The notes below the pieces were generated by a model. That model ran no database searches. It was not told the DNA's origin and was given only the letters and a program-made list of their open reading frames with translations. A program made the translations under genes and the position numbers. This document shows, in pieces, positions 1 to 41,094 of a stretch of DNA of 64,000 bases. Position 1 is the first letter of the stretch. Each line of letters starts with the position of its first letter. This DNA is from a virus (taxonomy: Duplodnaviria; Caudoviricetes), in IMG/VR virus record IMGVR_UViG_3300020577_003668, positions 1 through 64,000 of that record; one strand, written 5' to 3'.

Positions 1-1422
1 GGAGAAATTGGTACCGGCCGCTGTGTTTAGCAATGGTATAGATTGTAATGAGTAGCAGCTGTTGAACATGTTGGAGAAATCGGTACCGCGGATGGCGGTA
101 CCACTGCCGTCAGTTGTCATAACGATTGGTGCCCCGCCGTACGAGCCGGCCACCTGAAACGTATCGGCGGTGCGGTTGACCACGTAATACACAGTATCAA
201 TAGCAATGCCTGTCGTACCGGTGATCGAAGTGAATACGCAAGAATCACCGTCTCGAAAGCCATGCGACACGGCTGTTACCAAGTCTCCGGCGTCTGTGAA
301 CGTCACCCCCAACGTAGACGCTACTGCGGCGCTAGTTACAAAATTACCGTTGTTCTTTAAGTTGTAGGTAGCGTAGAACAGGTTACGCAATTGGCGCAAA
401 TCGCTAGCTTCAACGCTGAAGCTCTGGCACAAGCTGTGGCGGATTGCTTGAGTCTGAGTGCCCGGCGACTGCACGCCGAACCGTAAGTCGATCATTTGCT
501 CAAACGACATGACAATGTCCAACCAGCCGCTTGAGTAGGTCTGGAGCCCAGCTTGGCTGTGCTTAATGTGTAGATTGAAGCTGGTAACGTTGCTGGCATT
601 GGGCACAACAGTCACCACTACTTGACGGTATCTAGGGATGTACACCGAGCCGGTGCCATCCGTCGTTAGGGGTAATGCGGCTCCGCCGGCAGTGTTGGAG
701 ACCTGAAAAGTATCAGCGGTCCTGCCCACGATGAAGTACGTAGTGTAGGTGCTGATGCCTGTGGTGCTGACGATGACGCTGAAAGCCACCTGTTGTCCGT
801 CCTGCCAGCCGTGAGCTGTTAGATTAACAGTGTCACCGCTGTCAGTAAACGTGACGGCTTGAGCATCCGCAATACCAACATCACTGGTGTCAGGTGCATC
901 AGCCCAAGATATGTTGCGTTCTGCAGTTACGCCGCTTCCGATGTTGATATTGCCACTACCATCACCCCAATTTACGGTATAAGCACCGGCGGCGGATAGC
1001 GCCACGAAATTGGAGTTTTCAGGAAACACTGCATGTAGCCCAGCAAACTTTTGCACACCGGTCACGGAGGGCAGCGTAAGCCATGCTGGATTGCGAACCC
1101 AAGACGATATAGGCCCTAGCTTAGTCACTCCGGTCATGCTCGTGACTTCCATCTTTGAGCAGAAGACCGGGCTAGATCTGTGGTCGCCCACATCTAGCTT
1201 GTAGCAGACTAGGAATCCAAATCCACCTACTGGGAGGCCTGTGACATCATCTAGGTCAAGCGACAGGTAGCCGCTGGCATCGGTGGTGACGATGGCCGAC
1301 TGGCCTTTGATCAAACCTAGGTCGGGTGGAAGATCGCTGTCAAACCACATGACGGCAATGCCCGTGCCGCTGGCATAGGCAGCTCCTGTTTCGTCAAATA
1401 GTTGAACTGATACACCCTTCAT
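1..1422 (-). CDS. Tail fibre / receptor-binding-like protein, partial (runs off the left edge), with two FCCH-like beta modules and the start of DUF285/BspA-like leucine-rich repeats
   Basis: Not in the ORF track because no stop lies in the window. Manual translation from ATG at 1422 (MKGVSVQLFDETG...) is open to position 1. It has two copies of TFTDxGDxVxxxxHGxxDG...RTADTFQV and ends GTDFSNMFNSCYSLQSIPLLNTAAGTNFS. Confidence 0.75.
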   Translation of the reverse strand, partial: MKGVSVQLFDETGAAYASGTGIAVMWFDSDLPPDLGLIKGQSAIVTTDASGYLSLDLDDVTGLPVGGFGFLVCYKLDVGDHRSSPVFCSKMEVTSMTGVTKLGPISSWVRNPAWLTLPSVTGVQKFAGLHAVFPENSNFVALSAAGAYTVNWGDGSGNINIGSGVTAERNISWADAPDTSDVGIADAQAVTFTDSGDTVNLTAHGWQDGQQVAFSVIVSTTGISTYTTYFIVGRTADTFQVSNTAGGAALPLTTDGTGSVYIPRYRQVVVTVVPNASNVTSFNLHIKHSQAGLQTYSSGWLDIVMSFEQMIDLRFGVQSPGTQTQAIRHSLCQSFSVEASDLRQLRNLFYATYNLKNNGNFVTSAAVASTLGVTFTDAGDLVTAVSHGFRDGDSCVFTSITGTTGIAIDTVYYVVNRTADTFQVAGSYGGAPIVMTTDGSGTAIRGTDFSNMFNSCYSLQSIPLLNTAAGTNFS

Positions 1423-8259: not shown

Positions 8260-11200
8260 TTACGCCAACTTAAACTGGTTTCTTTCTTTCCAATTATTTG
8301 CATTAGCATCATTAGCAGCCTTTACAGTATCCGCTGTCATGCCGTTAGCATCGTAATTAGACTTAATTAAATCGCCAGTTTGTTCTCTCTGCTCTTCTCT
8401 TAGTTTGGCTACTTCAGCGCGAAGAGCTCTAATTTCAGAAACTAGTTCCTGAGTATTACCCATCATCATTGAAGTATTATTAGCGCTGTATACTCTTCCA
8501 GGATTCTGGAAGTCTACAACCTCTCTTCCATACTCACCAACCATCGCCACGCCAGAGGCTAATCCGCCCTTAGCAAATGCCGGTAGTCCTAGAGTCTTTG
8601 CCCAATCAAGTGCAGTACCAGGAGCGTAGCCCATAATACTATCCACCATTTGGGAAGAGAAACCTTCAGAGACATACTTATTATATAGTCCATAAGGGTC
8701 GCTATTTACCATACTATTAATAGTTGCAGCAATTTCCTTACTAGTAGTTTTTAATCCTTTTGAACCCACCCAGCTGGCATCTTGTAGACTACCAGAAGCA
8801 CCTGTTGTTGCTACTGCAAACGGTGAAGATGCAGTAGGAGTTACAGCAGGTACAGCAACTTTAGCTTCCGCTACTTTGTTAGTAGCAATGACTAGCTCTT
8901 TAAGGATAGTTTCAACGGATCTACTAGAGTCCTTGAGTTCGCTTAAATAACCGTTACTAGTTTCTAGTTGTATTAATTGTTTTTCTGCGTCTGTCTGTTG
9001 AGCGTCTAGTGCTGCGCTGGTTTGATCCAGAATACTAAGCACTGTATTAAAGTCACTAGTATAAGCTTCGGAACTTGCGTATAAAGTACGAGAAGCTTCT
9101 AACCAGGCATTGGTTGCTCCTGGTAGTTTAGAAATCGCAGACTCTTTTTCTAGGCGCTGTGTTTCCGTAGTAGCTACGCTGGTGGCGATTGCGGCTAGGT
9201 TTAGCGCTTGTTGCTTAGCCTCAGCATATTTCTGCGTAGGATTTAGCACAGATAGATTAGACTGTAATAATTCAGCTCTGTAATCCTTAATAGCTCTAGA
9301 AGCGTCCTTTAATGTAGATACTGTAGATTTTAATGTATCTTTTTGTTTATCATACGCTTCCTGTAATTCATCCTTTAGTGCTTTTTCGTCTTCTAGTGCC
9401 CAGATGTATTGCTGAGCTGGACGTAATTGAGCATCCATGGTCTCTAGTTCTAAGTTTCTAGATAGTGCTAGGGCCTCTGATTTTTTACCTAGTAATTCCA
9501 GGATTGTAATCTGCTGCTGATTATGTTTATCGAGGATTTCTTTCTCGTCTTGTAGTCTCCAGATACGAATCTTTAGCTGTTGATCCACTGCAGACATACC
9601 GCGTAGTTCTAGGCGTCTTCTTGCAGTTGTAGCTGCCGAAATATCGCCCATAGCTTCCATAAGATCGATTTGTAGATTATCTGTAGCCATCTTATCTTGA
9701 ACAGCAAATATATACTGCTTAAGCTTAACTTCAGCTTCAGTTAATCCTTCTAATTCCATAGTCCTACTTCTTACTAGCGCTTCGTAAGAATAACCCAATG
9801 CGGATAGTCCATCAATTTCTAACTGACGAATTTTCTTCTGCGCTTCTATGGCGGCTATTTCATCTTCTCTTGCATATACTGACTCTTGCAGAGCATGGTT
9901 AGCAGGATCGATAGTAGCTAATTCTCGTTCACGAGATAGGGCTAGGGCTTGGGATTCTTTACCCTGAGCACGTAGTAGTTCTACCTCTAGATCGGCATAC
10001 TTCTGCTTAATACCAGTAACTGCTTGAATAATCCTTATTTCGTCTTCTCTTGCATACACTGACTCTTGTAGGCCCCGGTTAACAGGATCGATTGTATCTA
10101 GCTCTATTTTCCGAGATAATGCTAAAGCTTCGGATTCTTTACCCTGAGCACGTAGTAGTTCTACCTCTAAGTTGGCGTACTTCTGTTTAATATTAGTAGC
10201 TTCTTGTAATAACTTAATTTCATTTTCTCTAGCATATACAGACTGTTGTAGTTCACGATTAGCGGTATCAATAGTAGCTAGTTCTCGTTCACGAGATAGT
10301 GCTAGGGCTTGGGATTCTTTGCCTTGGGCTCTTAATAACTCTACCTCTAAGTTGGCGTACTTCTGTTTAATATTAGTTGCTTCCTGTGCAATCTTTATCT
10401 CATCTTTTCTAGTATTTATTTGTAGTTGTACTATTTTTTCCGATCTAGACATATTTTGCATCTCTAGTTCTCTAGACAGAGCTAGTGCTTCCACTTCCTT
10501 GCCCTGGGCCCTTAATAGATCAACTTCCATATTTCTATAGTCGATGTCCATCTTTAAAGCTTTTATAGTATACTCTAATGCTAGATTTTGTCTGTATTGT
10601 AGCTTTTCTTCGTCGGTATAGCTCTTTGTAACTTTATCAATATAGTCAAATTCAGACATTGTAAGCTTATCATATTGATCTTGTAAATCAAGATTAGCTT
10701 TCTTTAAGTCATTTAATACATTGCTAGTGTTTCTAGTTTCTTTGTAGACTTCAGCAAAGCCTTCGGCTACGTTCATTAAACCAGCATAGAGATCCTGATT
10801 GCTAGTTTGTGTAAGGTCTAGGCCTCTAACAACATTAGCAAATCCTTCTCTGGTATTAAGGCCAGCGATCTTAATAGATACACCGCTCTTATCCGCTACG
10901 CTTTGTAGTCTACTTAGTTCTTTAGTTACTCGTGCCTGTACAGGCGCTAGACGTTGAGCTTCAGTTAGGAAGTTCTCGTTAAAGAATTGTCCCTGGCTTA
11001 CAAACTTTTCTAGTCCACCTGATAGGTCAATTAGACTTTCTGTAATACGAACTGTTGCTTCCTGAATGCTTTCGCCTTGTCCTAGTGCCATAGCTATATT
11101 ACTAATGGCCATACCAGAAGCTTCTAGTACTAATGCTGATACCTGCACATCACGTGCTAGCCTTACAATAGTATCTCCAAACTCTTCGCCTGGCTTCCTG

Positions 11201-29291: not shown

Positions 29292-30468
29292 GTTCTATCT
29301 CCACATTTTTAAATACAACATCCCATGTTCCAGGATTCCTAAATACGCGTACTGATGGATACCAGACATTTTCGAATCCCATCGAGTCATCACCCCAACG
29401 CCAGTCAGGGTCCTTGCGCATATTCAGTAGCCAGCAAGGCTTTCCTAGAGAACCGCATAAGTGCGCAATGGAGGTATCCACACATATTACTAAGTCCAGC
29501 GTCTCGAGTGACGCTATAGTATCAGCCCAGCACGAAGATGCTAGATCGATAAAACCCAGTCTGCCAGCCTCGGTAGGGTTAAGAGTATATAGAGTACCAA
29601 ACTTTGCAAGAGGCCTAAAGTACTCGGATTTAACAGAACGATGCCTATCATTAGCATGGTTAGGATTGCCAGACCAGGTAACCCCAATATCCAGTTTTCC
29701 ATTTGGTATTTTTGAAACGTATTTATCACTTAGCCATTCTCCTATCGGTAATCCTTGATTAAATATACGGCCCAAGCTACACATCCCAATACCGTATACA
29801 GTACCAGGAATTTCACTAGGATCGCTACAGGTATTATACGAGGAGAAGAATATCTTCATTGACTCGTTACACTGTACATAAAGTTTATTGCAGCGCGTAG
29901 CAGCTAATGGGAGGTACCGACCCCACATTAGTTGATCCCCCATCCCTTGTTCTGCTAGAATACATAGTGTATCGACTTTCTCGCCGGTCCAATGTAGTAC
30001 TGGCGCGCGAGACTTTAGAGTTACAGGAGCTAGAGTACGCTTGAATCTATTCTCGTATAACTCCCAACAGAACTTCAAATTGTCATATTTGCGGCTAGAA
30101 TATTTACGCAGCAAAGTATTCGCCATATTCCAATAAGCATCGTAGTACTTAGGGTTAGCAGTTATAGCTCTACGATAGTAAATAAGCGAAACATCATCTT
30201 CTTGATACGTGCCGGCCATTAACCCTAGGTTATTAAGAGCTTCAGGATACTCATCTACGAAGCTGTTATTAGTGAAGGGTACTTGTGGATCAGCCGCTAG
30301 AAGATACATTTCGATTGCATCGTCATCTCTGTCTAGCATTTTATAGCAGGAACCTAGGTTTAAGTAGATTTCCTTGTATTCAGCTCCATCTTTAAGCAAT
30401 TTCATAAATAGAGGGATTGCTTTTTCTGGACGCTTGTTAGTTAGATATTTAAGTGCCTTGTTGAACAT
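29257..30468 (-). CDS. TPR-repeat glycosyltransferase (GT-B, GT9-like C-terminus)
   Basis: N-terminal TPR motifs (YLNLG, ALNNLG); AEQGMGD, IGVTWSGNP, LDLVICVDTSIAHLCGSLGKP, DWRWG, WYPSVRVFR. Confidence 0.88.
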   Translation of the reverse strand: MFNKALKYLTNKRPEKAIPLFMKLLKDGAEYKEIYLNLGSCYKMLDRDDDAIEMYLLAADPQVPFTNNSFVDEYPEALNNLGLMAGTYQEDDVSLIYYRRAITANPKYYDAYWNMANTLLRKYSSRKYDNLKFCWELYENRFKRTLAPVTLKSRAPVLHWTGEKVDTLCILAEQGMGDQLMWGRYLPLAATRCNKLYVQCNESMKIFFSSYNTCSDPSEIPGTVYGIGMCSLGRIFNQGLPIGEWLSDKYVSKIPNGKLDIGVTWSGNPNHANDRHRSVKSEYFRPLAKFGTLYTLNPTEAGRLGFIDLASSCWADTIASLETLDLVICVDTSIAHLCGSLGKPCWLLNMRKDPDWRWGDDSMGFENVWYPSVRVFRNPGTWDVVFKNVEIELEKLSNSLRTV

Positions 30469-30934
30469 TGCCTAATAGTGATTGGATTAATTGACTATAC
30501 CTACTACCGTCGGAGACTCCGTCGTTAATCTGTACATTTACTTGATTCTTGATATTCGTCTGACGCAGCTTTTCCAGTTCAGTCTGGGCCTTTAGCTCAT
30601 CCATAGTCATCTTATGCTTGAGAGCTAGAAGCTCGGCGATATCTTTGGTTGATCCCATTCCGGACTCTTCTAGCTCCTGAAACTTCTGCTTAAGTACTGC
30701 GTCCATTGCGGCGTGAATCTTAAACCGATTATTGAAGCCTATGTTCATGAACACATGGTCGATATACGCCTTTACCTCACGTCTAGTTAGTATTTGTGTA
30801 ACTAGTTCGACTGTGATATCAAGATTTTCAGCGGTCTCTTTGACGTCCTGGCATTGAAGGTAAGCGTTTGCTACCTCTAGTGCCTCTGGGCTTATATCTA
30901 GCGTCTCCGCTGGTGTAGTGACTGGAAGGCTCAT
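30449..30934 (-). CDS. terS: Terminase small subunit (T5-like)
   Basis: ISPEALEVANAYL HTH, KDIAELL, QVNVQIN; first gene of the packaging operon. Confidence 0.8.
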   Translation of the reverse strand: MSLPVTTPAETLDISPEALEVANAYLQCQDVKETAENLDITVELVTQILTRREVKAYIDHVFMNIGFNNRFKIHAAMDAVLKQKFQELEESGMGSTKDIAELLALKHKMTMDELKAQTELEKLRQTNIKNQVNVQINDGVSDGSRYSQLIQSLLGNVQQGT

Positions 30935-30993: not shown

Positions 30994-31252
30994 GTGCAAA
31001 AATTTTCTGGGCTATGGAATCTAGATTTGACTGTAGAGGTTGATTAGGATATAATATTTATTGATCTGGGAAAGTGTGATGATTGATGCCGTAGGCATCT
31101 GGCTGCCTTGGTCAGTCTATAGGCACCGAAAGTATTGGTCATAAAAATCTAAAATAGGCCCGGAGGATGGGTATTGTAGATTATAACACATTTTTAGTCT
31201 CCTAACCGGCCCTATTTGTAACAGTCTGTAACTTGTGTAACAACATGTAAGA

Positions 31253-31787
31253 TGTAACAACCTGTAACTCGTAGGGTTATTGCTGTCAATAAGGGTTAAC
31301 ACCTATTGACACGCAAAAGATGTAACAACCTGTAACTCGTAGGGTTATTGCTGTCAATAAGGGTTAACACCTATTGACGCGCAAAAGATGTAACAACCTG
31401 TAACTTACAGGTTGTTATATTTGCGGCCCTAAATTGTACCATACAATTTAGGGCCGCGGCAAGAAAAAAGTTGTAACAACCTGTAACTCGTAGGGTTATT
31501 GCTGTCAATAAGGGTTAACACCTATTGACACGCAAAAGATGTAACAACCTGTAACTCGTAGGGTTATTGCTGTCAATAAGGGTTAACACCTATTGACGCG
31601 CAAAAGATGTAACAACCTGTAACTTACAGGTTGTTATATTTGCGGCCCTAAATTGTACCATACAATTTAGGGCCGCGGCAAGAAAAAAGTTGTAACAACC
31701 TGTAACTCGTAGGGTTATTGCTGTCAATAAGGGTTAACACCTATTGACACGCAAAAGATGTAACAACCTGTAACTCGTAGGGTTATT
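31253..31787. repeat. Higher-order tandem repeat: a 219-bp unit (68+68+83 bp) in about 2.4 copies
   Basis: TGTAACAACCTGTAAC starts at 31253, 31321, 31389, 31472, 31540, 31608, 31691 and 31759. Confidence 0.92.
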
Positions 31788-31863
31788 CGCACGCACTGCT
31801 AAAATCGTGTACATTACTTATATGGATTCTTCATCCTACCCCCTCCCCTCTAAGGCCGCTGCC

Positions 31864-32061
31864 ATGTTCGATTTTAAGGTTGAATTTTCTAAGGCCATTA
31901 CGCAAGCTATTGCCTCTAGCGACCGTAATCTTTATACTGCGCAAGCCGTTGCAGAATTGGCCGCTACGTTGGTGCCGGCAGATGTAGCAAAAGCCTATGG
32001 CCCTAACATGCTTAAGTCTTTGACTCGCACTGTACAAAACCTGCGTATTTGTGTAGCCTGA
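31864..32061 (+). CDS. Hypothetical pre-early protein
   Basis: ORF track 31807-32061; start chosen at MFDF after TAAGG. Confidence 0.55.
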   Translation: MFDFKVEFSKAITQAIASSDRNLYTAQAVAELAATLVPADVAKAYGPNMLKSLTRTVQNLRICVA

Positions 32062-32272
32062 TATACAACCAAGTATCGCCATGTAATCCAAGCATACCCT
32101 ACGGGGTATGCAGTCGCGCCGAAAATGTAACAACCTGTAACTTACAGGTTGTTACATTTGCGCCTAAATTGTACCACACAATTTAGGCCCGCGTCAATAA
32201 AAAAGTTGTAACAACCTGTAACAACATGTAAGATGTAACAGATTGTAATAAATTGTATTAATTTGTAACATT

Positions 32273-32407
32273 GCATACCCTACGGGGTACAGTACATGAG
32301 CATACCCTACGGGGTACAGTACATGAGCATACCCTACGGGGTACAGTACATAGGCATACCCTACGGGGTACAGTACATAGGCATACCCTACGAGGTACAG
32401 TACATAG
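32273..32407. repeat. Five tandem 27-bp repeats, each with a TACCCTACGGGGTA palindrome
   Basis: GCATACCCTACGGGGTACAGTACAT(GA/AG) repeated; the last copy has one substitution. Confidence 0.9.
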
Positions 32408-32505
32408 ATGTAACAGTTTGTAAAAGCACACACAGACGGACTAGGATGCGCTATATTAGGTACATGGATTCTTCATCTACCCTCACCCTGACGGAAGGAC
32501 TTGCC

Positions 32506-32640
32506 ATGTCTTCATTCTTCAAGCTGCAAGCGTATCACACTGCTGTTGCCAACGGCAGCATTAAGACTACACGCGCACAATGGGACATGCTGAATGCGCA
32601 CTATCATCGCATGGTTGCGATGTACATCCTCGGCTTCTAA
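32506..32640 (+). CDS. Small hypothetical pre-early protein
   Basis: GGAAGGA RBS, MSSFFKLQAYH... Confidence 0.5.
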   Translation: MSSFFKLQAYHTAVANGSIKTTRAQWDMLNAHYHRMVAMYILGF

Positions 32641-32769
32641 GGACCATCATGCAAGAAGAAGTTATGAGCGCATACATTGAAGGCTTGGACACTGAGACAA
32701 TTATGCGCATCTTTGACTTGACCTACCCCGAATTGTGCGCGATAATCATGGAGTACTAAGGAGATCATC

Positions 32770-32997
32770 ATGTATGCACTGCGCTCTGTTTCTTCCCCTC
32801 TGTTGTTACTTGCTGCCCACGGCAAGACCTATCCCACCATGGTAGCGATGCGCGCTGGCTGGGCGCGTGGCGATGACTTCAAGATGTATGGCTCCAGTTC
32901 GTACACTAGCATCCGTGACTTGGCCCGCCTGCAATGTGACAGCTCTAGCATCACACTGCATGACGTGCGCACTGGTGTTTCAATTGTTGTTGGTTAA
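32770..32997 (+). CDS. Hypothetical pre-early protein
   Basis: AAGGAG RBS, 75 aa. Confidence 0.6.
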   Translation: MYALRSVSSPLLLLAAHGKTYPTMVAMRAGWARGDDFKMYGSSSYTSIRDLARLQCDSSSITLHDVRTGVSIVVG

Positions 32998-33307
32998 CCA
33001 CTAGGAGAAATGAGAATGAACCTTAAGCAGATCAATGAGTTCCGCGTGTCGCACGGTCTGGCCCCCCTGCCTGCCCCTGCGCGTAAGGCGAACAGCGGTA
33101 ACGCTGCGAAGCGTGCCCAAGAATGCCGCGATCTGAAGGCCCGCCGTAGCAGCAACAAGAAGTAAGGATAGCATACCCCTAGGGGGTATGCGGGCGCCAT
33201 TTTACCATAGTAAAATGGGCCGCGTCAATCACTGTTACAAAGATTTACAACGTAAAGAAATGTAAAACCGCTGGACAGGTGGTTACCTAGCATATACTAT
33301 ATTAGAT

Positions 33308-33501
33308 GCATGGACACGAAACAAACCCGCAGCGAATACCTGGCAAACTTGCGGCTTGCCGAAAACGTGGATGCTCGGGCCAGCAGTTGGCGCGTGGCAT
33401 CTCCCTCCTGGGCTGATCCTGCTCCTGCGCGTGTTGTGCATCGCACTGTCAAGCGTAGCGCGTTGATTACCCTGAAAACCCTGTTCACATTCTGGAGATA
33501 G
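33308..33501 (+). CDS. Hypothetical pre-early protein
   Basis: About 63 aa directly after a -10 box (possibly leaderless); exact start uncertain. Confidence 0.45.
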
Positions 33502-33885
33502 TCGAATGTTTAAACTATTGCATAATGGTAAGACCATTTTGCGAGGTACGTATCGGCAATGCGTTATGCGACGTGCTGAGTTGCGCTCTGGTGATGGCGC
33601 ATTCTTTAATTCTCTAACTATCGTGCCGTGCGATATTGATTTTGACGGTTTCACTGGCTATTCACTGTAACAAAAGCCGACCAATTTGGTCGGCTTTTTG
33701 CGGCGCCGAAAATGTAACAACCTGTAACTTACAGGTTGTTACAAGTTTTACAGTTTGCGCCGATTTTATCATAGAAAATCGGGCCGCGTCAATAGGGTAA
33801 CTACCTATTGACAGCAGAAAGTTGTAACAACCTGTAACTTGAAGGGGTATAAGCATATAGGCCGAAAATGCGCTAGAATCGCGGT

Positions 33886-34275
33886 ATGGCACAGACACTG
33901 GCTCACCTGATCGCACTGGCAGATATTCGTCGCAATATCGTATGGGATAAGTTGCGCAAGATTTACCCCGATATTCAAATTCGTTACCCTGCCATTATCA
34001 TCAATAAGCGGCTGAAAACTACTGGCGGGCGGGCATTTACTTGGAAGAATCCCCAGTATATTGATTTGAGCCATGATTTGCTTTTGGAGCATGGCGAATC
34101 TTTTATTAATTGGGTAGTACCCCACGAATTAGCCCACTTGGTTGCCTATACTAAATACGATGATAATGGGCACGGTAATGGCTGGAAAACAGTAATGCAA
34201 AAGGATCTGGGTATCCTGCCAGAAAGATGCCATCCTTTTGAAAATACTAAATGGGTGGCGAGTCGCGCAAAATGA
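33886..34275 (+). CDS. SprT-like zinc metalloprotease domain protein
   Basis: RLKTTGGRA, HELAH, HGNGWKTVM, CH motifs. Confidence 0.85.
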   Translation: MAQTLAHLIALADIRRNIVWDKLRKIYPDIQIRYPAIIINKRLKTTGGRAFTWKNPQYIDLSHDLLLEHGESFINWVVPHELAHLVAYTKYDDNGHGNGWKTVMQKDLGILPERCHPFENTKWVASRAK

Positions 34276-34527
34276 AAAACTTTCCTAGTTTGTTGGCGGT
34301 AATTGGCGCATGGCTTTGTGCCATTGGTTTGATTCTGCCGGGTATTATTGCGTTTTTGTGCAGTTCGCTAGTCGCAATATATATTAATGAGGATCATTCG
34401 ATTTTCACGTTTGCATTCTTTGCTGCTAATATCGTCGCATTTTTCAGGCTGATTTAATATGCTGCAATATACATTCTTGATTGTTGTTGTTTACGCATTT
34501 GCTCCAATCATCATCATTTATTTCTGC

Positions 34528-34783
34528 GATGAACACTGAAATTCTCGGCTGGATTGGCTCCCTATTGTTCGCAGTATGCGGCGCACCGCAAGCGTGGCAA
34601 TGTATGCGGGATGGACATTCTAGGGGGCTGAATTGGTTTTTCCTTTTGGCGTGGCTAGGGGGTGAGATACTGACAATCATTTATGTTATTCCCAAAATGG
34701 ATTTGCCTTTACTGTCAAACTATTTTGCGAATCTTTTGTTTCTAGGCGTGATGATACGTTATAAACTCTGGGAAAGAAAATGA
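34528..34783 (+). CDS. PQ-loop / SemiSWEET-like small membrane protein
   Basis: GWIGSLLFAVCGAPQAW...SRGLNWFFL with three hydrophobic helices. Confidence 0.75.
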
Positions 34784-34997
34784 AACTATTTGAGATTGTT
34801 TTCGCTGACGGTCGCAGCATTATTCAATTCGCAAATACTCGGCGCGAATTGCGTATTAAGTTTGCCGGGTATATGATTCGTGAAATTAACCGCGTGGATA
34901 TTCATTAATGGCTGAATACATTTTTACCACATTATTGTGGGTATTGATTGTGTATATGTGTTGGGGTTATCGCAAATATATGCACAGATAATCAAAA

Positions 34998-35022
34998 TTA
35001 CCCGACTGATTTAGTCGGGTAA
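34998..35022. promoter_or_regulatory. IscR type-1-like box, doubling as a terminator hairpin
   Basis: TTACCCGACTGATTTAGTCGGGTAA against consensus ATASYYGACTRWWWYAGTCRRSTAT. Confidence 0.7.
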
Positions 35023-35094
35023 TTTGCGCCAAAATTATATCATATAATTTTGGGCCGCGTCAACAAAAAAGTTGTAACAGTTTGTAACAGCATA

Positions 35095-35110
35095 AGCAAG
35101 AAGCGTGCCA
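35095..35110 (-). promoter_or_regulatory. Sigma54 -24/-12 site
   Basis: TGGCAC-GCTTC-TTGCT. Confidence 0.75.
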
Positions 35111-35303
35111 GGTTTCTGTATACCCCTACGGGTACCCATATATACCATACGTGGTAGGGTACACTGGCCACCTAAGAAGATGGATACCCTACGGTGTATT
35201 AATTATGGATACCTAAGAAGGCGTCGATCTTTTTGTGCCGATAGGTGGGGGGCTTGAACCCGAAAATCGGCACGATTCGGCGTGTGAGGCGTTTATGGGG
35301 CCA

Positions 35304-35319
35304 AGCAAGACGTGTGCCA
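35304..35319 (-). promoter_or_regulatory. Sigma54 -24/-12 site
   Basis: TGGCAC-ACGTC-TTGCT. Confidence 0.75.
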
Positions 35320-35492
35320 GAAATTAGAAATCCGCGCCAAAATTGTAACAACCTGTAACTTGTAGGGGTAAGGGTAAACACCTATTGACATGTAATAGTT
35401 TGTAAAACCACTTGACCACACAATTTAGTAGGACATTGCGCACACTGGCTGGAAACGTGCTAAGATCGTCACTCAACAACGGAAGGTCTTAA

Positions 35493-35969
35493 ATGCCCGC
35501 AATTACTAAGGTTTCCATCTATGATATGGATGGCACTATCGTGGATTCAACCCACAGATATCGCACAGTTACTGTGAATGGTATTGAAAAGATTGATCTG
35601 GAATACTGGCGTGCAAATGAATATCGCGCGATGGATGATGGTTTGCTGCCATTGGCTGAACAGTATCGCAGAGAATTGCGCGATGAAAATACATATGTGA
35701 TTATTGCCACTGCGCGGGTTATGGGCGCGGCAGATTGGCAGTTTGTCGATGAAATTCTCGGCAAACCCGATTATTTCATTAGTCGTCGCGCAGGTGAAAC
35801 TATTTCTGGCGGTCAATTGAAAATCAACGGCCTGCAAAAGTTTTTTAACCTGAAACAGTTTCGCAAGGCTGACGCAGTATTTTATGAAGATAATACTTCA
35901 TACTTGAAAGCAGTTTGCGATCATTTCCAAATCCGTGGCGTTTATATTCCTTCAAAACAGGGTCATTAA
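35493..35969 (+). CDS. HAD-superfamily phosphatase / nucleotidase
   Basis: DMDGT motif I, IATAR motif II, FYEDN motif IV. Confidence 0.85.
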   Translation: MPAITKVSIYDMDGTIVDSTHRYRTVTVNGIEKIDLEYWRANEYRAMDDGLLPLAEQYRRELRDENTYVIIATARVMGAADWQFVDEILGKPDYFISRRAGETISGGQLKINGLQKFFNLKQFRKADAVFYEDNTSYLKAVCDHFQIRGVYIPSKQGH

Positions 35970-36501
35970 TATGTGGAAAATGCTCAATTTTAAAAGAGAT
36001 AAGCGCACTGTTAAAAATGTGCTCAAGTTTCCATTTATCATTATGGGGGGTTTTGTGACTATGTTTTTCTGGCTTATCGAATATATTCATTTTGAATGGT
36101 CTGAGGTAGTTTGTGATAAACTACCTAAATGGGATATGTAATATGTCATTAGTTATTTTCTTGGTTGTTTGTACTGCGATTCTCGCAGTATTTGGAGCAG
36201 TATTCTTTATTAAATGGCTATATAACGAATATATTATATGGGCGTTTGAACAGTAAATAATAGCCGCAATATGCGGCTATTATTTTGCCCATACTCTGTT
36301 ACATTCTGTTACATATGGGCGCCAAAATTATAGCATATAATTTTGGGCCGCGTCAAGCGGCAAGGTGTAACAGTTTGTAACAGCAACAGGGCGAGTTGTA
36401 ACAATTTGTAATAACGCTTGACAGACTGATTTAGTAGGACATTGCGCGGGCTGGCTGGAAACGTGGTACACTCAGGTTCCCTAAACAACGGAGTTTCTAG
36501 C

Positions 36502-37200
36502 GTGGCTGCAAAACAGTATTTTCTGATTGTCGATACTGAAACTAGTATTTCAGATAAGGTTGTCGATTTTGGCGCTGTTATCTGTGATCGGCAAGGCAAT
36601 ATATATTCTCAATGTGCGGTTTTGATTAATACCGTTTTCGGCGTAGATTCTCTATTCTACGACAAAGCCGCTTCGGGTATCTGGTCTGTTAATAGCGTGC
36701 AGCGTCGCATGGATAATTATAATAATATGCTGAATACTGGGTCTAGAATGCTTGCCTCAGTTAATGCTATTAATCGCTGGCTTGATAAGGCAAATGCCAA
36801 GTATAGCCCCGAACTTACCGCTTATAATCTGGCTTTCGATATGGGTAAATGCCGCAATACTGGTATCGAACTGGATATCTTTCAAAAGCGGTTTTGCTTG
36901 TGGGCTGCGTCTATCGGCAATATCTGCAATACTAAGGCATACCGCGAATTTGTTTTGAATAATCACCTTTTCAATGCTCGTACTGATAAGGGAAACATGA
37001 CTTATTCGACTACCGCCGAGAATGTCACGGGGTTTCTCACTGGTACTCTGACCGATGAACCCCATACTAGTATCGAGGATATTATCGGTTATGAATTGCC
37101 GACCCTGGTGCATATTGCCAAAAAGGCAAAATGGCGAGATAAGATTACTCCGTATTCGTGGAATCACCATCAAGTTAACCAACATTTCAAGGTGAAATAA
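36502..37200 (+). CDS. DEDDh (DnaQ-like) 3'-5' exonuclease
   Basis: IVDTET, AYNLAFD, HTSIED; GTG start after GGAG. Confidence 0.8.
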   Translation: MAAKQYFLIVDTETSISDKVVDFGAVICDRQGNIYSQCAVLINTVFGVDSLFYDKAASGIWSVNSVQRRMDNYNNMLNTGSRMLASVNAINRWLDKANAKYSPELTAYNLAFDMGKCRNTGIELDIFQKRFCLWAASIGNICNTKAYREFVLNNHLFNARTDKGNMTYSTTAENVTGFLTGTLTDEPHTSIEDIIGYELPTLVHIAKKAKWRDKITPYSWNHHQVNQHFKVK

Positions 37201-37201
37201 T

Positions 37202-37582
37202 ATGATGGATATTGGTACTATGATTCTCACAGCCTGTAAGGCTTTGAATATCAATATACCCGTGAGGGTTACTCTGGTCAATAAGTTTACTAAGAAAATG
37301 AAGGACACCGCTGGAATAACTTATACCATTTACCGCAAAAACAAAATCCAGTATTTCAAGATATCCATTTGCTTGAGTGAATGCCTTATGTCTGGATATT
37401 CGGTGAGTGATACCATATTGCATGAACTGGTACACGCTAGTATGGTCGAGAATAATAAGTTTAATAATGACTACCATCACGACGCCGTATTTCAGGATAT
37501 CTGCGAGAAACTCAAGACCTATATGCAAGAAATGGGTTTCCCGGTGGGGGTACTATATAATCCTGATATTGATAAGAGTTAA
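37202..37582 (+). CDS. SprT-like HExxH metalloprotease domain protein
   Basis: TILHELVHA...HHDAVF. Confidence 0.7.
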   Translation: MMDIGTMILTACKALNINIPVRVTLVNKFTKKMKDTAGITYTIYRKNKIQYFKISICLSECLMSGYSVSDTILHELVHASMVENNKFNNDYHHDAVFQDICEKLKTYMQEMGFPVGVLYNPDIDKS

Positions 37583-37962
37583 TTTCACAAACCCGCTCCG
37601 GCGGGTTTTTTTATTATCTCGATACTATACCCCCGGGGGTACCCGGGCGCCAATTTTACCACGTAAAATTGGGCCGCGTCAAGCGACTGTTACATCTGTT
37701 ACGTACGGCGGCGGATACCCTACGGGGTACCCTATATACCCTACGGGGTAGGGCAATACCCGACTGAATTACTCAACAATGCGCACAGACTGCGAAAGTC
37801 TGTTATATTTATGTCTCTGGATTACGCAACGCAGCAAAGGACGCAAAAACCCTACACTTGACTCGGAATTGAAACCTGAGTTATACTAGTTTCAACGGTT
37901 ATCGGTGCTACCGGCAAAACGCAAAAGCCCCGATTGTTCCTAGTTTTTCTGGAGTATTGAAA

Positions 37963-38454
37963 ATGGCGAAGACTGAAAAGGTTGTGAATTACACTGACGC
38001 GCAAGCGTCCGAACTCAAGGCGGCGTATGTTGCGAATCCTACCAAGGAAACCGTGGCAACTTTTGCTGCGAAGTTTGGTAAGACTACACGGAGCATCGTT
38101 GCCAAACTGGCAAAGATGGAAGTTTACCAAAAGGCTGAATATGTCAGCAAAACTGGCGAAAAGCCTGTCAAGAAGGATGCCCATGCCGATGCTATCGCTA
38201 AGGTGCTGGGCCTGTCCGAAAACGATGCGGAATCGTTGACCAAGGCGAATAAGACCGCACTTGTTAAGGTGTTTTCCGCTTTGGCAAATTCCGTGCCAGT
38301 TGAAGCGGAAACTCCCGAGGAAACGGCCGCAAAGCCGGATTCTATCGCGGTGCTGGTGCGAGTCGCGGGCTTGACTGCCGAGGATGCTAAGAGCATCGGT
38401 CGGGTGCGCGGTGCGGTGCTGGCCAAGTTGGCAGCGGTTTTCGCTGACGAATGA
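37963..38454 (+). CDS. T5 A2/D3-like DNA-binding protein
   Basis: NYT..Q...L...Y, FGKTTRSIVAKL...VY, ESLTKA pattern; duplicated C-terminal module. Confidence 0.7.
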   Translation: MAKTEKVVNYTDAQASELKAAYVANPTKETVATFAAKFGKTTRSIVAKLAKMEVYQKAEYVSKTGEKPVKKDAHADAIAKVLGLSENDAESLTKANKTALVKVFSALANSVPVEAETPEETAAKPDSIAVLVRVAGLTAEDAKSIGRVRGAVLAKLAAVFADE

Positions 38455-38555
38455 CAATAGGGGGAAACCCCTATTGCAAAAACGGGCAACGCACTCGGAA
38501 GCTAATTGCATGCGTGTAGGTGTTGGAAATCCGCAACACTGAACTATTCGGTAGA

Positions 38556-38580
38556 ATAGCCGACTAATATAGTCGGCTAT
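38556..38580. promoter_or_regulatory. IscR type-1 box (full consensus match), doubling as a terminator hairpin
   Basis: ATAGCCGACTAATATAGTCGGCTAT followed by a T run. Confidence 0.75.
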
Positions 38581-38839
38581 TTTTTGGCCGCGCGCTGTTA
38601 CAAACTGTTACACTTTAATGCTTGACACGGCACGCTGCGCGTGCTATAATGAAAGCGCTGGCGCGCCAAAATTTTGTTACAATTGGTTACAAAGGCTAAT
38701 TATACCATCAAAATCGTGCCCGTGTCAAGAAATATAAATAGCCCTGCAATCTGGTCAACAATGCACACAGGCTGCGATTCTGGCTTATACTGTGTTCCTG
38801 GGTTGGCGATGTTGCTGCCCCTAACTTGAAAGGTTCGAT

Positions 38840-39148
38840 ATGATCTCCAATTCCAAGCTTACCAAGGAACAAAAGGAAGCTCGCAAGGTGCATAAGGCTA
38901 CAATCGTTGCTCAGGGTGGTGCGATTGTCACTAGTTCCGATGGCTCAGTTACCGTTGCTTTCATGCCTGAGTTTCAGGGTTCACGCATGCTGGCTGTCGG
39001 CGTTTCCGTTGCTTCACCGTATGAACGCAAGATTCGTGCCAAGGTGGGCGAATATCATGCGCTGGACAATTTGATGTTCGGCAATGCGATCAAGGTGCCC
39101 GATGGCGTAGATATGTACGCGCTGGCTGATGTAATCGCGGATCATTAA
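38840..39148 (+). CDS. Hypothetical protein
   Basis: 102 aa, GAAAGG RBS. Confidence 0.6.
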   Translation: MISNSKLTKEQKEARKVHKATIVAQGGAIVTSSDGSVTVAFMPEFQGSRMLAVGVSVASPYERKIRAKVGEYHALDNLMFGNAIKVPDGVDMYALADVIADH

Positions 39149-39217
39149 TCAATAGGGGGAAACCCCTATTCTAGCGGCGCATCAGACTGCTAGAATAGGT
39201 GCTTCACTTGGGAGTAA

Positions 39218-39451
39218 ATGATGCTTTCACCTTACGAATATCCAGTTGACCGTGTTATCGGTCAGGTCAATACTAGCGAAATGAATCCGCAATTGCCAGT
39301 CGCTGAAATTCAGGGTTTGCACAATTCCGGCTTGTCAACTGACGAGGATGGCGAAACCATTTTCGACGTTGATGATCCCGAAATCCCTTTCGGCTGGCGT
39401 ATTATTGAAGCCGATGATCTTTCCCTTTTCTTTCCCTCGGAGATTCTGTGA
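39218..39451 (+). CDS. Hypothetical acidic protein
   Basis: 77 aa, GGGAG RBS. Confidence 0.55.
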   Translation: MMLSPYEYPVDRVIGQVNTSEMNPQLPVAEIQGLHNSGLSTDEDGETIFDVDDPEIPFGWRIIEADDLSLFFPSEIL

Positions 39452-39807
39452 TGCGTGAATATGTACCCTTTTCGGCTCTGTTGGGCCTGACGTTTGCCAA
39501 TGTCGTGGCTGAAGATGATAAGGTTATCTTCACTCATGCCGATGGCCGCGTTTTCACTTTGGAACATATTCAAGATTGTTGCGAGCATGTATACATTGAA
39601 AGTATCGTCGGTGATCTGCCTGATCTGGTGGATAGCGAGATTCTGCGCGCTAATGAGGAAACGCAGTATGATCCAGATACTGAGTATGGCGAGTGGACCT
39701 TTTACAAACTGGCTACCTGTAAAGGTTATGTCGATATTCGGTTCTATGGTTCCAGTAATGGTTACTATGGCGTAGGCGTGGACCTTTGGGTAGATATTCC
39801 CGAATAA
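39448..39807 (+). CDS. Conserved phage hypothetical protein
   Basis: HIQDCCEHVYIE...WTFYKLAT.KGYVDIRFYGSSNGYY. Confidence 0.7.
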   Translation: MMREYVPFSALLGLTFANVVAEDDKVIFTHADGRVFTLEHIQDCCEHVYIESIVGDLPDLVDSEILRANEETQYDPDTEYGEWTFYKLATCKGYVDIRFYGSSNGYYGVGVDLWVDIPE

Positions 39808-39963
39808 CTAGAAAAACCCGAGATAATCGGGTTTTTCAATACTTTAAATTGTAACAACCTGTAACTTACAGGTTGTTACAATTTGCGCCAAAATTATACC
39901 ATAATTTTGGCACCCGCGTCAAGCGTTGTTACAAACACTTACACGCTGTTGTTTTTGCGCAAC

Positions 39964-39979
39964 TGGCACGATTCTTGCT
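39964..39979 (+). promoter_or_regulatory. Sigma54 -24/-12 site
   Basis: TGGCAC-GATTC-TTGCT. Confidence 0.75.
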
Positions 39980-39989
39980 TGCAGGCCTG

Positions 39990-40008
39990 AATGCGAATCA
40001 TTCTCGTT
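39990..40008. promoter_or_regulatory. Fur-like box
   Basis: AATGCGAATCATTCTCGTT, two mismatches to the palindrome AATGAGAATCATTCTCATT. Confidence 0.6.
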
Positions 40009-40406
40009 CGCATTGTTAGTAAGCGCTAACTGGGGCGATATGTAACAACCTGTAACTTGTAGGGTTATTCGGAAGTTAGTGAGCACTAACTAACTTTTTT
40101 CACTACCAAAATTGCGCACGCTTTCGCGCGGCGCCAGTGGTAGATCTTGGCAAGTGCAAAATCTCAGATGCGATTTGCGCCAAATTATACCAGTGGTAAA
40201 CCTTGGCAGTCAAGTAAGAATTTTCAATCGTAAAACACAGCCTCTGCAACCATCAAACTTTTTTTCTTGAAGAATTTTATGTAATCGGGCATAATAATGA
40301 AATGCGTTAGGGAATCAAGGAAAGCATAGCCAGCGCGACCATAAAACGTGCGGGCGGAACTATCCGAAATTATCGAATGCATCAACATAGCGGCGAAATT
40401 TCTTTC

Positions 40407-41094
40407 TTGATTGCCGCGGTTCTCTTCTCTATAATAGATATATCGGATGGGGAAACACCCTGGAAGTTACCCTCAGTAACCATCTGAATTTCTCTGTTGA
40501 TCCTCAACCTGTTGTGTTATATAATATTTCTTTGAAAGGGAATATATGGCTACCGAAAAGACCGTGAACTACACTGAAGCCCAAACCACCGAACTGGTGC
40601 AGGCCTACGTTGCTACCCCGACTGACGAGACCGTCAAGTCGTTCGCCGAGAAGTTCGGCAAGACCACTCGTTCGATTGTTGCCAAGCTGGCTAAGGAGAA
40701 GGTTTACGTCTCCAAGGCTAAGGAAGCTGGCAAGCGCGATATGCTGAAGAGCGAAATGATCGCGAAGATCGCCGGCCTGGTGGGCCGTAGCGAAGAACAG
40801 CTGGAAAGCCTGGAGAAGGCTACCGGTGTGGCTCTGAAGGCAGTGATCGAGGCGCTGGAAGCGCGCGACGCTGAGATCAAGTCGCTGACCGAAGAAGTCA
40901 CCGCTTGATTAACGGCAGGTGCCAGCCAGGCGGCTGGTTAAATGAACAAGGCCTGAACAGCCTGCCAAAATTTTCACTTGATTTGTGTCCCCGATTTCTA
41001 TATAATAGATATATCGGATGGGAAAGCAGCGACAGACTCCAGCGTGAAGCATTAAAAATTCTGTCTTGATTCGCTGCTCAAATCCCTGTATAAT
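40407..41094 (+). promoter_or_regulatory. Cluster of strong T5-like early promoters
   Basis: TTGAT(T/C)-N17/18-TATAAT near 40407, 40497, 40978 and 41066. The same type recurs near 52373, 53732, 55201, 56760, 57411, 60849 and 63684; several share the leader AGATATATCGGATGGG. Confidence 0.8.
40546..40908 (+). CDS. T5 A2/D3-like DNA-binding protein (paralog)
   Basis: Shares EKxVNYT and FGKTTRSIVAKLAK with 37963-38454. Confidence 0.7.
   Translation: MATEKTVNYTEAQTTELVQAYVATPTDETVKSFAEKFGKTTRSIVAKLAKEKVYVSKAKEAGKRDMLKSEMIAKIAGLVGRSEEQLESLEKATGVALKAVIEALEARDAEIKSLTEEVTA

Follow-up and report, generated by a model that had tools for sequence, protein, structure and literature searches.

Candidate host IscR and sigma54 sites in a pre-early-type region of a clade of T5-like phages

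Introduction

Injection by T5-like phages halts once 8% of the DNA has entered. The nature of this stop and of the timing of the pre-early genes has been a question for 60 years, for which the sole sequence-based proposal is host DnaA boxes. A related question is raised by a region at 31.2-40.2 kb of the IMG/VR virus record IMGVR_UViG_3300020577_003668, whose first 64 kb (64,000 nucleotides of the 105,545-bp record, hereafter the window) were analyzed here. In this region small rightward gene cassettes are separated by repeat-rich spacers, and a first-pass annotation of the window had read the spacers as a library of host transcription-factor-like sites, combined from about six recurring motifs, on DNA presumed to be injected first. 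Which of these motifs are likely to be bound by host proteins, and which are better explained by proteins or RNAs of the phage itself?

The answer that we favor, at about an even chance of being correct, is that the region is a T5-type pre-early module with composite control units, in which putative sites for host IscR and sigma54 stand beside other boxes that would serve phage proteins or RNA structure. The evidence comes from motif scans of the whole genome and from relatives located with the small terminase (TerS) as anchor, of which 80 were fetched from ~390 metagenomic relatives in IMG/VR (individual relatives are cited by L numbers). The likeness to IscR and sigma54 sites points to Proteobacteria as the putative host.

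Motif Census and Enrichment

Expected numbers of sites were calculated from base composition for a 9.3-kb region, and the remaining 96 kb of the genome served as the outside comparison. Of the six motif classes, five are far more frequent than expected by chance and are essentially restricted to 31.2-40.2 kb of the 105.5-kb genome; all of the IscR, GTAAC, TACCC and AGGG matches lie inside these 9 kb, as do five of the six sigma54 sites. Matches to the IscR type-1 consensus with two mismatches or fewer number three against 4e-5 expected, and a scan of the whole genome found none outside the region at up to four mismatches. Sigma54 -24/-12 elements with at most one mismatch number five against 0.06 expected, compared with one against 0.5 expected in the other 96 kb. 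The GTAA(C/A)-N5-GTAA(C/A) tandem box, for which 0.1 copies would be expected in the region, is present 24 times, always within 31.2-40.1 kb and including the two boxes that had been placed at 32410-32424 and 33252-33266, and the TACCC-N-GGGTA palindromes (10 copies) and AGGG(T/G)WAAC(A/C)CCT palindromes (6 copies) are likewise all inside the region.

These counts are inflated by a tandem array of a 219-bp unit, which contributes 8 of the 24 GTAAC boxes and all but one of the six AGGG palindromes. This array and a five-fold array of 27-bp TACCC units lie in a segment, 31268-32647, that has no counterpart in the closest relative (L041) save for one 137-bp piece that is repeated in the array. 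The concentration of sites at 31-40 kb was nevertheless borne out for five of the six proposed classes; the Fur-like box is the exception, as the best matches to the 19-bp Fur consensus reach 13-14/19 (13/19 at 39987) and 6 of the 44 sites in the genome lie in the region, which is no enrichment. Paired DnaA boxes in inverted repeats were absent, and the sequence TTWTNCACA occurs once in the region of 12 occurrences in the genome, again with no enrichment. Conservation in related phages divides the five enriched classes, since IscR-like and sigma54-like sites recur across diverged lineages whereas the other boxes are lineage-specific.

IscR-Like Sites

The IscR type-1 consensus was taken as the 25-bp string printed in PMC3899308 and PMC6599224. 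One site in the region matches it at every position and two at 23 of 25 (Table 1); one of these, at 37756-37780, is among the two boxes previously called IscR-like, while the other of that pair, at 36418-36442, falls to 18/25. When positions 34990-35029 were used as a blastn query, 34998-35024 proved to be 24/27 identical to a single place ~110 bp upstream of iscR in 5376 of 5426 complete Escherichia coli genomes. We take this place to be the footprinted site A, which is the distal one of the type-1 sites at the iscR promoter, and the phage version (34998-35022) is a symmetrised copy of the better half-site of the E. coli match. On the region side of TerS, the 80 relatives hold eight IscR sites with two mismatches or fewer in 363 kb, where 0.002 would be expected, compared with none in 495 kb on their structural side. 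No IscR-like stems occur among the terminators of the other 96 kb of the genome, no match to the IscR type-2 consensus was found in the scan, and comparison of the IscR-like terminator with cultured phages gave chance matches only.

Copies that do not form a hairpin adjoin the weak -35 of rightward promoters in a constant layout (25-mer, 6 nt, 17-18 nt, -10). In the window this is the copy at 37756, for which L041 has a counterpart; L048 and L083 have one such copy each, and L091 has two or three. Between the promoter copies of L083 and L091 the flanks are identical and the four differences lie inside the site, all at degenerate positions of the consensus, so that one variant is like the distal and the other like the proximal E. 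coli iscR site. This is the pattern that would be expected if selection acts on IscR binding. The first-pass annotation had offered a switchboard, a decoy array and a set of landing pads as possible roles for the host-type sites, and the promoter-adjoining geometry favors the switchboard for IscR, if the protein does bind.

Compared with the type-1 sites of the E. coli iscRSUA promoter, the phage copies are alike in their match to the consensus (25/25 and 23/25) and to the E. coli site itself, and in the promoter-proximal position of some of them. They differ in that they lie in a lytic phage, that some double as terminator stems, that those at promoters stand upstream of the -35 and do not overlap it, and that binding is putative. 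According to PMC4169559, type-1 sites are specific for the cluster-bearing (holo) form of IscR. Were control by IscR real, it would provide a direct link from the iron-sulfur (Fe-S) status of the host to the start of lytic infection.

Sigma54-Like Sites

The sigma54 consensus scanned was TGGCACG-N4-TTGCW, and the presence of consensus sites noted before was confirmed, with two exact copies (35095 and 39964) and three that are one mismatch off. All five copies keep TGGCAC and TTGC and differ only in the 4-nt spacer. The leftward promoter at 39893-39922 has the copy at 39964 ~70 bp to its right, and the 15-mer of this copy is found at equal distance from the homologous promoter in L041, L097, L103 (twice), L104 and L107, where the flanks have diverged. 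This site is kept in place in relatives with ~64% identical TerS. It is ~580 nt from the next sizeable open reading frame (ORF).

The phage copies resemble bacterial sigma54 (RpoN) promoters in having TGGCAC, five bases and TTGC at canonical spacing. They are unlike them in that most have no downstream gene, that two lie antisense inside coding sequence, and that they are accompanied by no phage activator and by no recognisable enhancer sites, for which no dedicated search was made. The sigma54 holoenzyme forms stable closed complexes without transcribing. A BLAST search of E. coli genomes with the sigma54 block returned no match. The spacer shared by the rightward promoters at 35438 and 36444 (TGGCTGGAAACGTG) was considered as a further sigma54 site and rejected, having at least three mismatches and not keeping the -12 GC. 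Also set aside as evidence of direct sigma54 use was the resistance of Salmonella rpoN, himA/D and nfuA mutants to the T5-like phage Aji_GE, which its authors trace to RpoS (PMC8744999).

Between the two leftward sigma54-type sites at 35.1-35.3 kb is a gene-free, hairpin-rich stretch of 180 nt (35111-35292, minus strand) that folds better than its shuffles (z -2.7). It is part of a segment, 34918-35472, that is missing from the closest relative, and it could be a small RNA gene.

Leftward Promoters and Spacer Organization

The most conserved element of the region was not in the first-pass annotation. It is a set of 11 strong leftward sigma70 promoters of the extended -10 type, roughly one per spacer, with the form TTGAC(G/A), 15-16 nt, TG, one base and TA-AAT; all 11 have an 18-nt spacer and the TG, and one matches the consensus at 12/12 positions. 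In almost all lineages of relatives examined, down to 58% TerS identity, there are 3-8 of these promoters per 10 kb on the region side of TerS, nearly all of them leftward, compared with none on the structural side. The leftward -10 is followed by a conserved TTGGCGC, and the promoter spacer is an inverted repeat of the -10 and its TTGGCGC tail; the arms of this palindrome covary between copies and between lineages. The TTGGCGC downstream of the leftward promoters (e.g., 35021-35033) also fits the purine-GCGC consensus of the single-strand nicks in the T5 record.

The predicted leftward transcripts are short and run into one or two strong hairpins, with z values of -5 to -10, that are the terminators of the upstream cassette. 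Read from left to right, a spacer thus consists of the terminator hairpin of the previous cassette, a strong leftward promoter, box arrays, a rightward promoter and the next cassette. The rightward promoters have the character described earlier, a good -10 with a weak GCGCAC-like -35 and a 17-nt spacer, and are present at 31787, 35438, 36444, 37781 and 38763. T4 middle promoters carry a MotA box in place of the -35, and by analogy of mechanism only, the combination of a good -10 with a non-canonical element for the -35 suggests that the cassette promoters depend on an activator; unlike in T4, the upstream element differs between cassettes, and no homolog of MotA or AsiA was noticed, although none was sought. 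As a set, the region offers very strong, compact, clade-conserved promoters and terminators.

Several smaller features of the spacers were noted. The rightward (38622-38650) and leftward (38699-38728) promoters that match the consensus at 12/12 positions face one another with their predicted starts ~35-40 bp apart and a reversed GTAAC box between them. Two cassettes (~31824-31850 and 32463-32490) share a conserved leader of ATGGATTCTTCATC followed by a C-rich tract between promoter and start codon. At the right edge (40100-40215), and in L092, L097, L106, L113 and L116, there is a clade-wide repeat of one to three copies of GCGCCAGTGG, 6-8 nt and CAAGTGCAAAA; the leftward promoter at 40184-40213 is one of the copies in the window, and its neighbor looks like the promoter unit minus its -10. 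This repeat may mark a repeat boundary or a packaging site.

Cassette Turnover among Relatives

Relative to L041 (TerS 98%), whole spacer-bounded segments have been replaced or lost, namely 31268-32647, 34918-35472 and 35974-36205, and in more distant relatives the common part is limited to dmp, the 252-aa gene and the helix-turn-helix (HTH) gene. Contigs from metagenomes also join one spacer to another, which is weaker evidence as the joined sides are short (20-32 nt) and may be repeat artefacts. These observations are what would be seen if the repeated spacers served chiefly as modules for recombination, through which co-infecting relatives exchange cassettes, their regulatory content being that of ordinary early promoters and terminators. 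Such modules have been described in T4-type phages as promoter-stem-loop cassettes, or PeSLs (PMC2839356, PMC4122927). In both cases the early ORFs, which are small and variable, are separated by a repeated promoter and stem-loop, and what distinguishes close relatives is whole cassettes with the repeats at their ends. The differences are that in the present clade the strongest conserved promoter points away from the following cassette, that its units contain host-type sites and arrays of operator-like boxes as well, and that the sequences are unrelated. Recombination would explain the turnover, but not the exact consensus sites of host type, their conservation in place or the covarying -10 palindrome. 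As a primary function of the spacers it is possible, if on the unlikely side, and it is compatible with putative host sites in a pre-early module rather than an alternative to them.

Host-Type Sites or Phage Operators

With the spacer organization in hand, the working of the composite control units can be proposed. Host sigma70 polymerase would fire the leftward promoters into the nearby hairpins and so produce short structured RNAs, while the rightward cassette promoters would need help at their weak -35 from factors bound upstream. In several cassettes this help, or a block, would come from host holo-IscR on the 25-mer at about -36 to -60, in which case expression of the IscR-linked cassettes would follow the Fe-S status of the host. 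Host sigma54 holoenzyme would sit as a closed complex at up to five sites, with the conserved one near the inner edge of the region, and the GTAAC boxes and the TACCC and AGGG..CCCT palindromes would either form RNA hairpins or be bound as operators by phage HTH paralogs, rather than by host CpxR or CsoR.

Binding by host IscR and by sigma54 holoenzyme is plausible because the sites recur across diverged lineages, because of the 24/27 identity to the E. coli iscR promoter, and because no matching phage regulator is present. In agreement with the first-pass annotation, which had found no such regulator in the window, Rrf2, Trans_reg_C (OmpR-type), CsoR-family, Sigma54_DBD and Sigma54_activat domains are absent from the whole phage genome by a search in which the controls were positive.

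Several findings weigh against host binding and are set out together here. Among the four best IscR-like sites in the window, three are also terminator stems, and in L041 and L050 the stem has been altered by a compensatory pair (GACC..GGTC) such that the hairpin is kept and the match to the consensus is lowered. Selection for the hairpin is therefore part of the story, and part of the IscR match may stem from a hairpin family. Known type-1 IscR sites are repressor sites that overlap promoters, and no characterised precedent is known to us for a type-1 site at -36 to -60. As for sigma54, four of the five sites point leftward with no gene to drive and two are inside genes; upstream activator sites were not noticed at any of them, although no search was aimed at enhancers. 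The 15-mer at 39964 is conserved with its spacer included, which is not required of a sigma54 site, and the sigma54 pair at 35.1-35.3 kb is missing from the closest relative. Finally, a scan of T5 found that its terminal repeat has neither IscR-type nor sigma54-type sites.

The main rival explanation draws on several of these points. It holds that all of the motif classes are phage-specific, being operators for the phage HTH paralogs or RNA/DNA hairpins such as terminators and RNA ends, and that the resemblance to IscR and sigma54 sites came about by coincidence or because similar palindromes arose convergently. A conserved HTH family with weak matches to GcrA and sigma70 region 4 and a predicted three-helix N-terminal domain is encoded in the region of most relatives examined, the boxes beside the conserved leftward promoter differ by lineage while their positions are kept, the changes in the IscR-like stems preserve the hairpin, and the predicted leftward transcripts fold strongly, all of which such an explanation would lead one to expect. 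It has more difficulty with one 25/25 match, two 23/25 matches and a 24/27 identity to the iscR promoter, which are very unlikely by chance, and with hairpin-free copies at promoters in five lineages that vary only at degenerate positions. Moreover, the sigma54 copies vary exactly where sigma54 sites do, and stems of the IscR type are missing from the terminators elsewhere in the genome. We consider it unlikely that the phage-specific explanation accounts for every class, and prefer putative host sites for IscR and sigma54 alongside phage-specific boxes of the other kinds.

Relation to the T5 Terminal Repeat

In T5 the leftward gene order ends with the large terminase (TerL) and TerS. A stretch of ~3 kb with small genes separates these from the right terminal repeat, whose sequence is identical to that of the left, first-entering repeat. 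In the window the leftward late operon (1-30934) encodes the tape measure, major tail, a protease-capsid fusion, portal, and large and small terminase, the TerL being 45% identical to the large terminases of T5-like phages, and 13 tRNA genes are found at 41.6-63.7 kb. The order of TerL-TerS, the region and tRNA-rich early genes is thus that of T5, and the position of the region corresponds to that of a T5-type terminal repeat. The region also encodes a homolog of T5 Dmp, whose gene is a hallmark of the pre-early set in the T5 terminal repeat; large blocks of conserved, untranslated repeats, typical of that terminal repeat, are present as well. On the grounds of synteny and the Dmp homolog, 31.2-40.2 kb appears by synteny and gene content to be the equivalent of the T5 terminal-repeat (first-step-transfer, pre-early) region, collapsed to one copy in the assembly.

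We infer from this that the region would be physically duplicated at the genome ends and injected first. The first-pass annotation had presumed as much, and the position, dmp and the repeat blocks do fit T5, the support being that of synteny and gene content only. What the record gives as a 'direct terminal repeat' is an overlap of 51 bp from the assembly, and the first 30 nt of the record are found again twice, 72 bp apart, close to its opposite end; the assembly is therefore of the circular type. At the record ends (window 1-51 and genome 105422-105545) a 72-bp direct repeat adjoins the 51-bp overlap and one ORF runs off the first base of the record, so that the overlap looks like closure of the assembly and not like a true genome end. 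Contig depth across the region was 12.7-20.3 compared with 12.9 and 17.8 in the flanks in the best of 24 public runs, which is no doubling, these being assembled contigs in which depth is not copy number. Contigs from RNA libraries span the cassettes, with strand and ends not visible and DNA carry-over possible.

The present region and the T5 terminal repeat are alike in their place by synteny, in their neighbors (dmp and small pre-early genes), in dense direct repeats, inverted repeats and palindromes with non-coding blocks that are better conserved than many genes, and in that host-protein boxes have been proposed as functional elements. They are unlike in that there is no sequence similarity and no paired DnaA boxes in the present region, that its repeats occur at every cassette junction and those of T5 are concentrated in three blocks, and that all of its cassettes are rightward, in contrast to the leftward dmp, A1 and A2 of T5. 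A homolog of A1 was not found in a comparison that covered only the region's largest ORF (36442-37200), and pairwise matches between T5 A2 and the HTH paralogs were not significant. In the left terminal repeat of T5 (L038; positions 5080, 7519, 3089 and 9653-9712) we found three exact GTAAA-N5-GTAAA boxes, one of them in Repeat Region 1, and Fur-like boxes of 15-16/19 in the annotated injection stop signal.

The first-pass annotation had known of no comparable arrangement in a lytic phage, a claim that does not hold for its general form. The T5 terminal repeat, with its three conserved untranslated repeat regions and the host DnaA boxes proposed as an injection stop in the Davison model, has been published (bioRxiv 10.1101/866236), and repeat-rich first-injected DNA with proposed host-protein boxes is thus not new. 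What is new is the clade itself, whose best cultured-phage homolog among the genes tried is 45% identical (TerL), the layout of one module per junction with a conserved outward-facing promoter, and the particular host-type sites involved; the literature searched had nothing on T5-like phages with sites of the IscR or sigma54 type. A megablast search of 50,697 phage records with the region returned no match, and an Rfam scan of 30.9-41.7 kb gave sub-threshold chance matches only. The clade shows that a repeat-rich architecture of the presumed first-entered DNA is general, while the host-type sites differ by lineage, being IscR-like and sigma54-like here and DnaA and Fur-like boxes in T5.

A bolder form of the argument is that this clade of T5-like phages has wired its first-expressed DNA to host sensors, with holo-IscR beside weak -35 elements gating single pre-early cassettes by Fe-S and redox state and sigma54 holoenzyme, parked at the inner edge, replacing the DnaA boxes of T5 as a stop mark for DNA entry or transcriptional read-through. 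We regard this as rather unlikely in its entirety. If it were true, a lytic phage would read the physiology of its host at injection through borrowed host sites and without a regulator of its own.

Alternatively, the host-type sites may serve as landing pads that stop or pace DNA entry and have nothing to do with transcription control, such that sigma54 closed complexes, IscR, and sigma70 polymerase on non-escaping promoters hold the first-entered DNA at its inner edge. The injection stop region of T5, for which DnaA boxes of the host are the proposed signal, consists of a conserved block of untranslated repeats and occupies the inner end of the terminal repeat. In the window a conserved sigma54 site, an adjoining palindrome and clade-wide repeats come together at 39.8-40.25 kb, which is the inner edge by synteny. 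The stability of sigma54 holoenzyme as a closed complex would suit such a role, as would the direction of the leftward promoters, which face against the presumed direction of entry and therefore cannot pull DNA in. On the other hand, two-step injection and the physical ends are only presumed for this clade, the IscR-like sites are scattered over 4 kb and adjoin promoters, the region lacks paired DnaA boxes and its single box is no enrichment, and the DnaA model of T5 is itself a proposal. Landing pads are in our judgment improbable as the sole function of the host-type sites, the conserved block at 39.8-40.25 kb being the likeliest place for such a role.

GTAAC Boxes and Palindromes

The first-pass annotation had likened the GTAAC tandem boxes to sites of OmpR/CpxR and the TACCC palindromes to those of CsoR-family proteins, and as geometry both likenesses are real. 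However, the GTAAC, TACCC and AGGG..CCCT elements vary by lineage at a fixed position relative to a conserved promoter, a turnover that fits phage operators or RNA hairpins better than a library of about six host factors. We therefore consider all three better read as phage-specific operators or RNA hairpins than as CpxR/OmpR or CsoR sites.

Fifteen of the 24 GTAAC boxes are one identical 16-mer, spacer included, all on the plus strand. Five boxes lie within 31-nt perfect palindromes just downstream of leftward promoters, and the remainder are just upstream of a leftward -35 or between divergent promoters. Where a lineage has no GTAAC boxes, both positions are taken by different repeats, such as the GTTGTA-AT-rich-ACA motif of L077 and L084. 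Palindromes of the TACCC and AGGG..CCCT kinds also turn over by lineage, whereas hairpins persist at the cassette ends.

Type-2 operators of the CsoR family have the consensus ATATACCCCT-N-AGGGGTATAT and follow a TAC-X9-GTA rule (PMC3902906). The phage TACCC..GGGTA palindromes share their layout of TAC, C-tract, G-tract and GTA, and the copy at 33174 is nearly the Streptomyces copZA operator. They are unlike them in that known CsoR operators are mainly Gram-positive and the phage palindromes are lineage-specific, and in that the isolated phage copies (32095, 33174 and 37628) are at the 3' ends of cassettes and form hairpins. The palindrome gave no match to E. coli genomes by BLAST and was not found as a string in the literature.

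That the GTAAC boxes are sites of a host OmpR-family response regulator such as CpxR, which would tie the promoters to the envelope stress of infection, is highly improbable, despite the 10-bp phasing of the boxes, which is that of tandem sites of the CpxR/OmpR type (10-11 bp), a single exact match at 33252-33266 (with N5) and three further boxes one base off the CpxR consensus GTAAA-N(4-8)-GTAAA (PMC5063474), GTAAA versions at the same place in L116 and L106, the three exact boxes in the T5 terminal repeat (~0.2 expected by our own estimate) and the lack of an OmpR-type protein in the phage genome, as the predominant 16-mer is fixed through its spacer and has C and not A at the fifth position, several lineages have other repeats instead, and the five palindromic copies resemble RNA hairpins.

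Table 1. Positions of the principal features in and around the region (window numbering).
Feature	Positions	Strand	Remarks
Whole pre-early-type region	31200-40220		Small rightward cassettes between repeat-rich spacers; terminase end of late operon on one side, tRNA-rich early region on the other
Small terminase (TerS) gene	30449-30934	-	Last gene of late operon; phrog_3802, E 8e-40; anchor for relatives
Span of 24 GTAA(C/A)-N5-GTAA(C/A) tandem boxes	31218-40056		10-bp phasing
Tandem array, 219-bp unit x 2.6	31249-31905	+	68/83-bp sub-units, each with GTAAC box, AGGG..CCT palindrome and leftward promoter; strain-specific expansion
Five tandem 27-bp units	32273-32407	+	Each with TACCC..GGGTA palindrome; upstream of GTAAC box and rightward promoter
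TACCC..GGGTA palindrome	33174-33188		After stop codon; hairpin inside predicted leftward transcript
Two TACCC..GGGTA palindromes	37716-37750	+	Just upstream of IscR-like box at 37756
IscR type-1 consensus site	38556-38580		25/25; doubles as stem-loop of rightward terminator, then T run
IscR type-1-like palindrome	34998-35022		23/25; about +1 to +25 of predicted transcript from leftward promoter 35034-35063
IscR type-1-like 25-mer	37756-37780	+	23/25; no hairpin; directly adjoins weak -35 of rightward promoter 37781-37809
Terminator hairpin, same stem family	33673-33697		21/25 to IscR consensus
Second box first called IscR-like	36418-36442	+	18/25; adjoins promoter 36444-36472
Sigma54 -24/-12 consensus	35095-35110	-	Exact; motif scan
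Sigma54-like	35304-35319	-	1 mismatch; motif scan
Sigma54-like	38283-38298	-	1 mismatch; inside HTH gene, antisense; kept in L041
Sigma54-like	39026-39041	-	1 mismatch; inside ORF 38840-39148, antisense; kept in L041
Sigma54 consensus	39964-39979	+	Exact; motif scan, relatives alignment
Leftward extended -10 promoter	31433-31462	-	TTGCCG, 18 nt, TACAAT, with TG
Leftward extended -10 promoter	31652-31681	-	Copy inside tandem array
Leftward extended -10 promoter	32168-32197	-	Predicted transcript crosses GTAAC palindrome hairpin and TACCC hairpin
Leftward extended -10 promoter	33199-33228	-	Motif scan
Leftward extended -10 promoter	33763-33792	-	-35 adjoins AGGG..CCT palindrome; second TTGACA on far side of palindrome
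Leftward extended -10 promoter	35034-35063	-	IscR-like palindrome at start of predicted transcript
Leftward extended -10 promoter	36327-36356	-	Motif scan
Leftward extended -10 promoter	37653-37682	-	Motif scan
Leftward promoter, 12/12 consensus with TG	38699-38728	-	Faces rightward consensus promoter 38622-38650
Leftward extended -10 promoter	39893-39922	-	Predicted 77-nt transcript 39884-39808 = 18-bp hairpin and terminator, z -10.5; aligned with relatives
Leftward extended -10 promoter	40184-40213	-	Right edge of region
Rightward promoter of dmp cassette	35438-35466	+	GCGCAC, 17 nt, TAAGAT
Rightward promoter	37781-37809	+	GCGCAC, 17 nt, TATATT
Rightward sigma70 promoter, 12/12 consensus	38622-38650	+	Motif scan
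Dmp homolog (deoxynucleoside-5'-monophosphatase)	35493-35969	+	36% identity to T5 Dmp over 87 aa, E 7e-15; kept in relatives
Conserved 252-aa protein	36442-37200	+	phrog_20187; kept in L042, L046, L047; no Pfam match
Helix-turn-helix protein	37957-38454	+	Paralog family; candidate phage binder of lineage-specific boxes
Second HTH-family paralog	40546-40908	+	Just right of region

Genes of the Region

The HTH family is the best-conserved protein of the region, with two to four copies in the region of most relatives examined and the nearest copy 52-69% identical. Its members match the PHROGs 'DNA binding protein' and 'D5-like' regulator weakly, and the Pfam matches to GcrA and sigma70 region 4 mentioned above are weak as well. 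The N-terminal domain is predicted as a three-helix bundle; a fold search gave nothing significant, with homeodomain-like three-helix matches only, and a sequence search of the PDB gave weak matches only, GcrA being found at E 0.77. No cultured-phage relatives were found for either the HTH gene or the 252-aa gene. In the latter protein a D-T-E-T stretch near the N-terminus recalls the DEDD 3'-5' exonucleases, with no family match, and it is feasible that the protein could stand in for T5 A1 in the breakdown of host DNA. The cassettes further include two genes with SprT-like metalloprotease domains (33886-34275 and 37202-37582), one for a membrane protein of the PQ-loop type (34481-34783) and one for a protein with DUF7448 (39448-39807).

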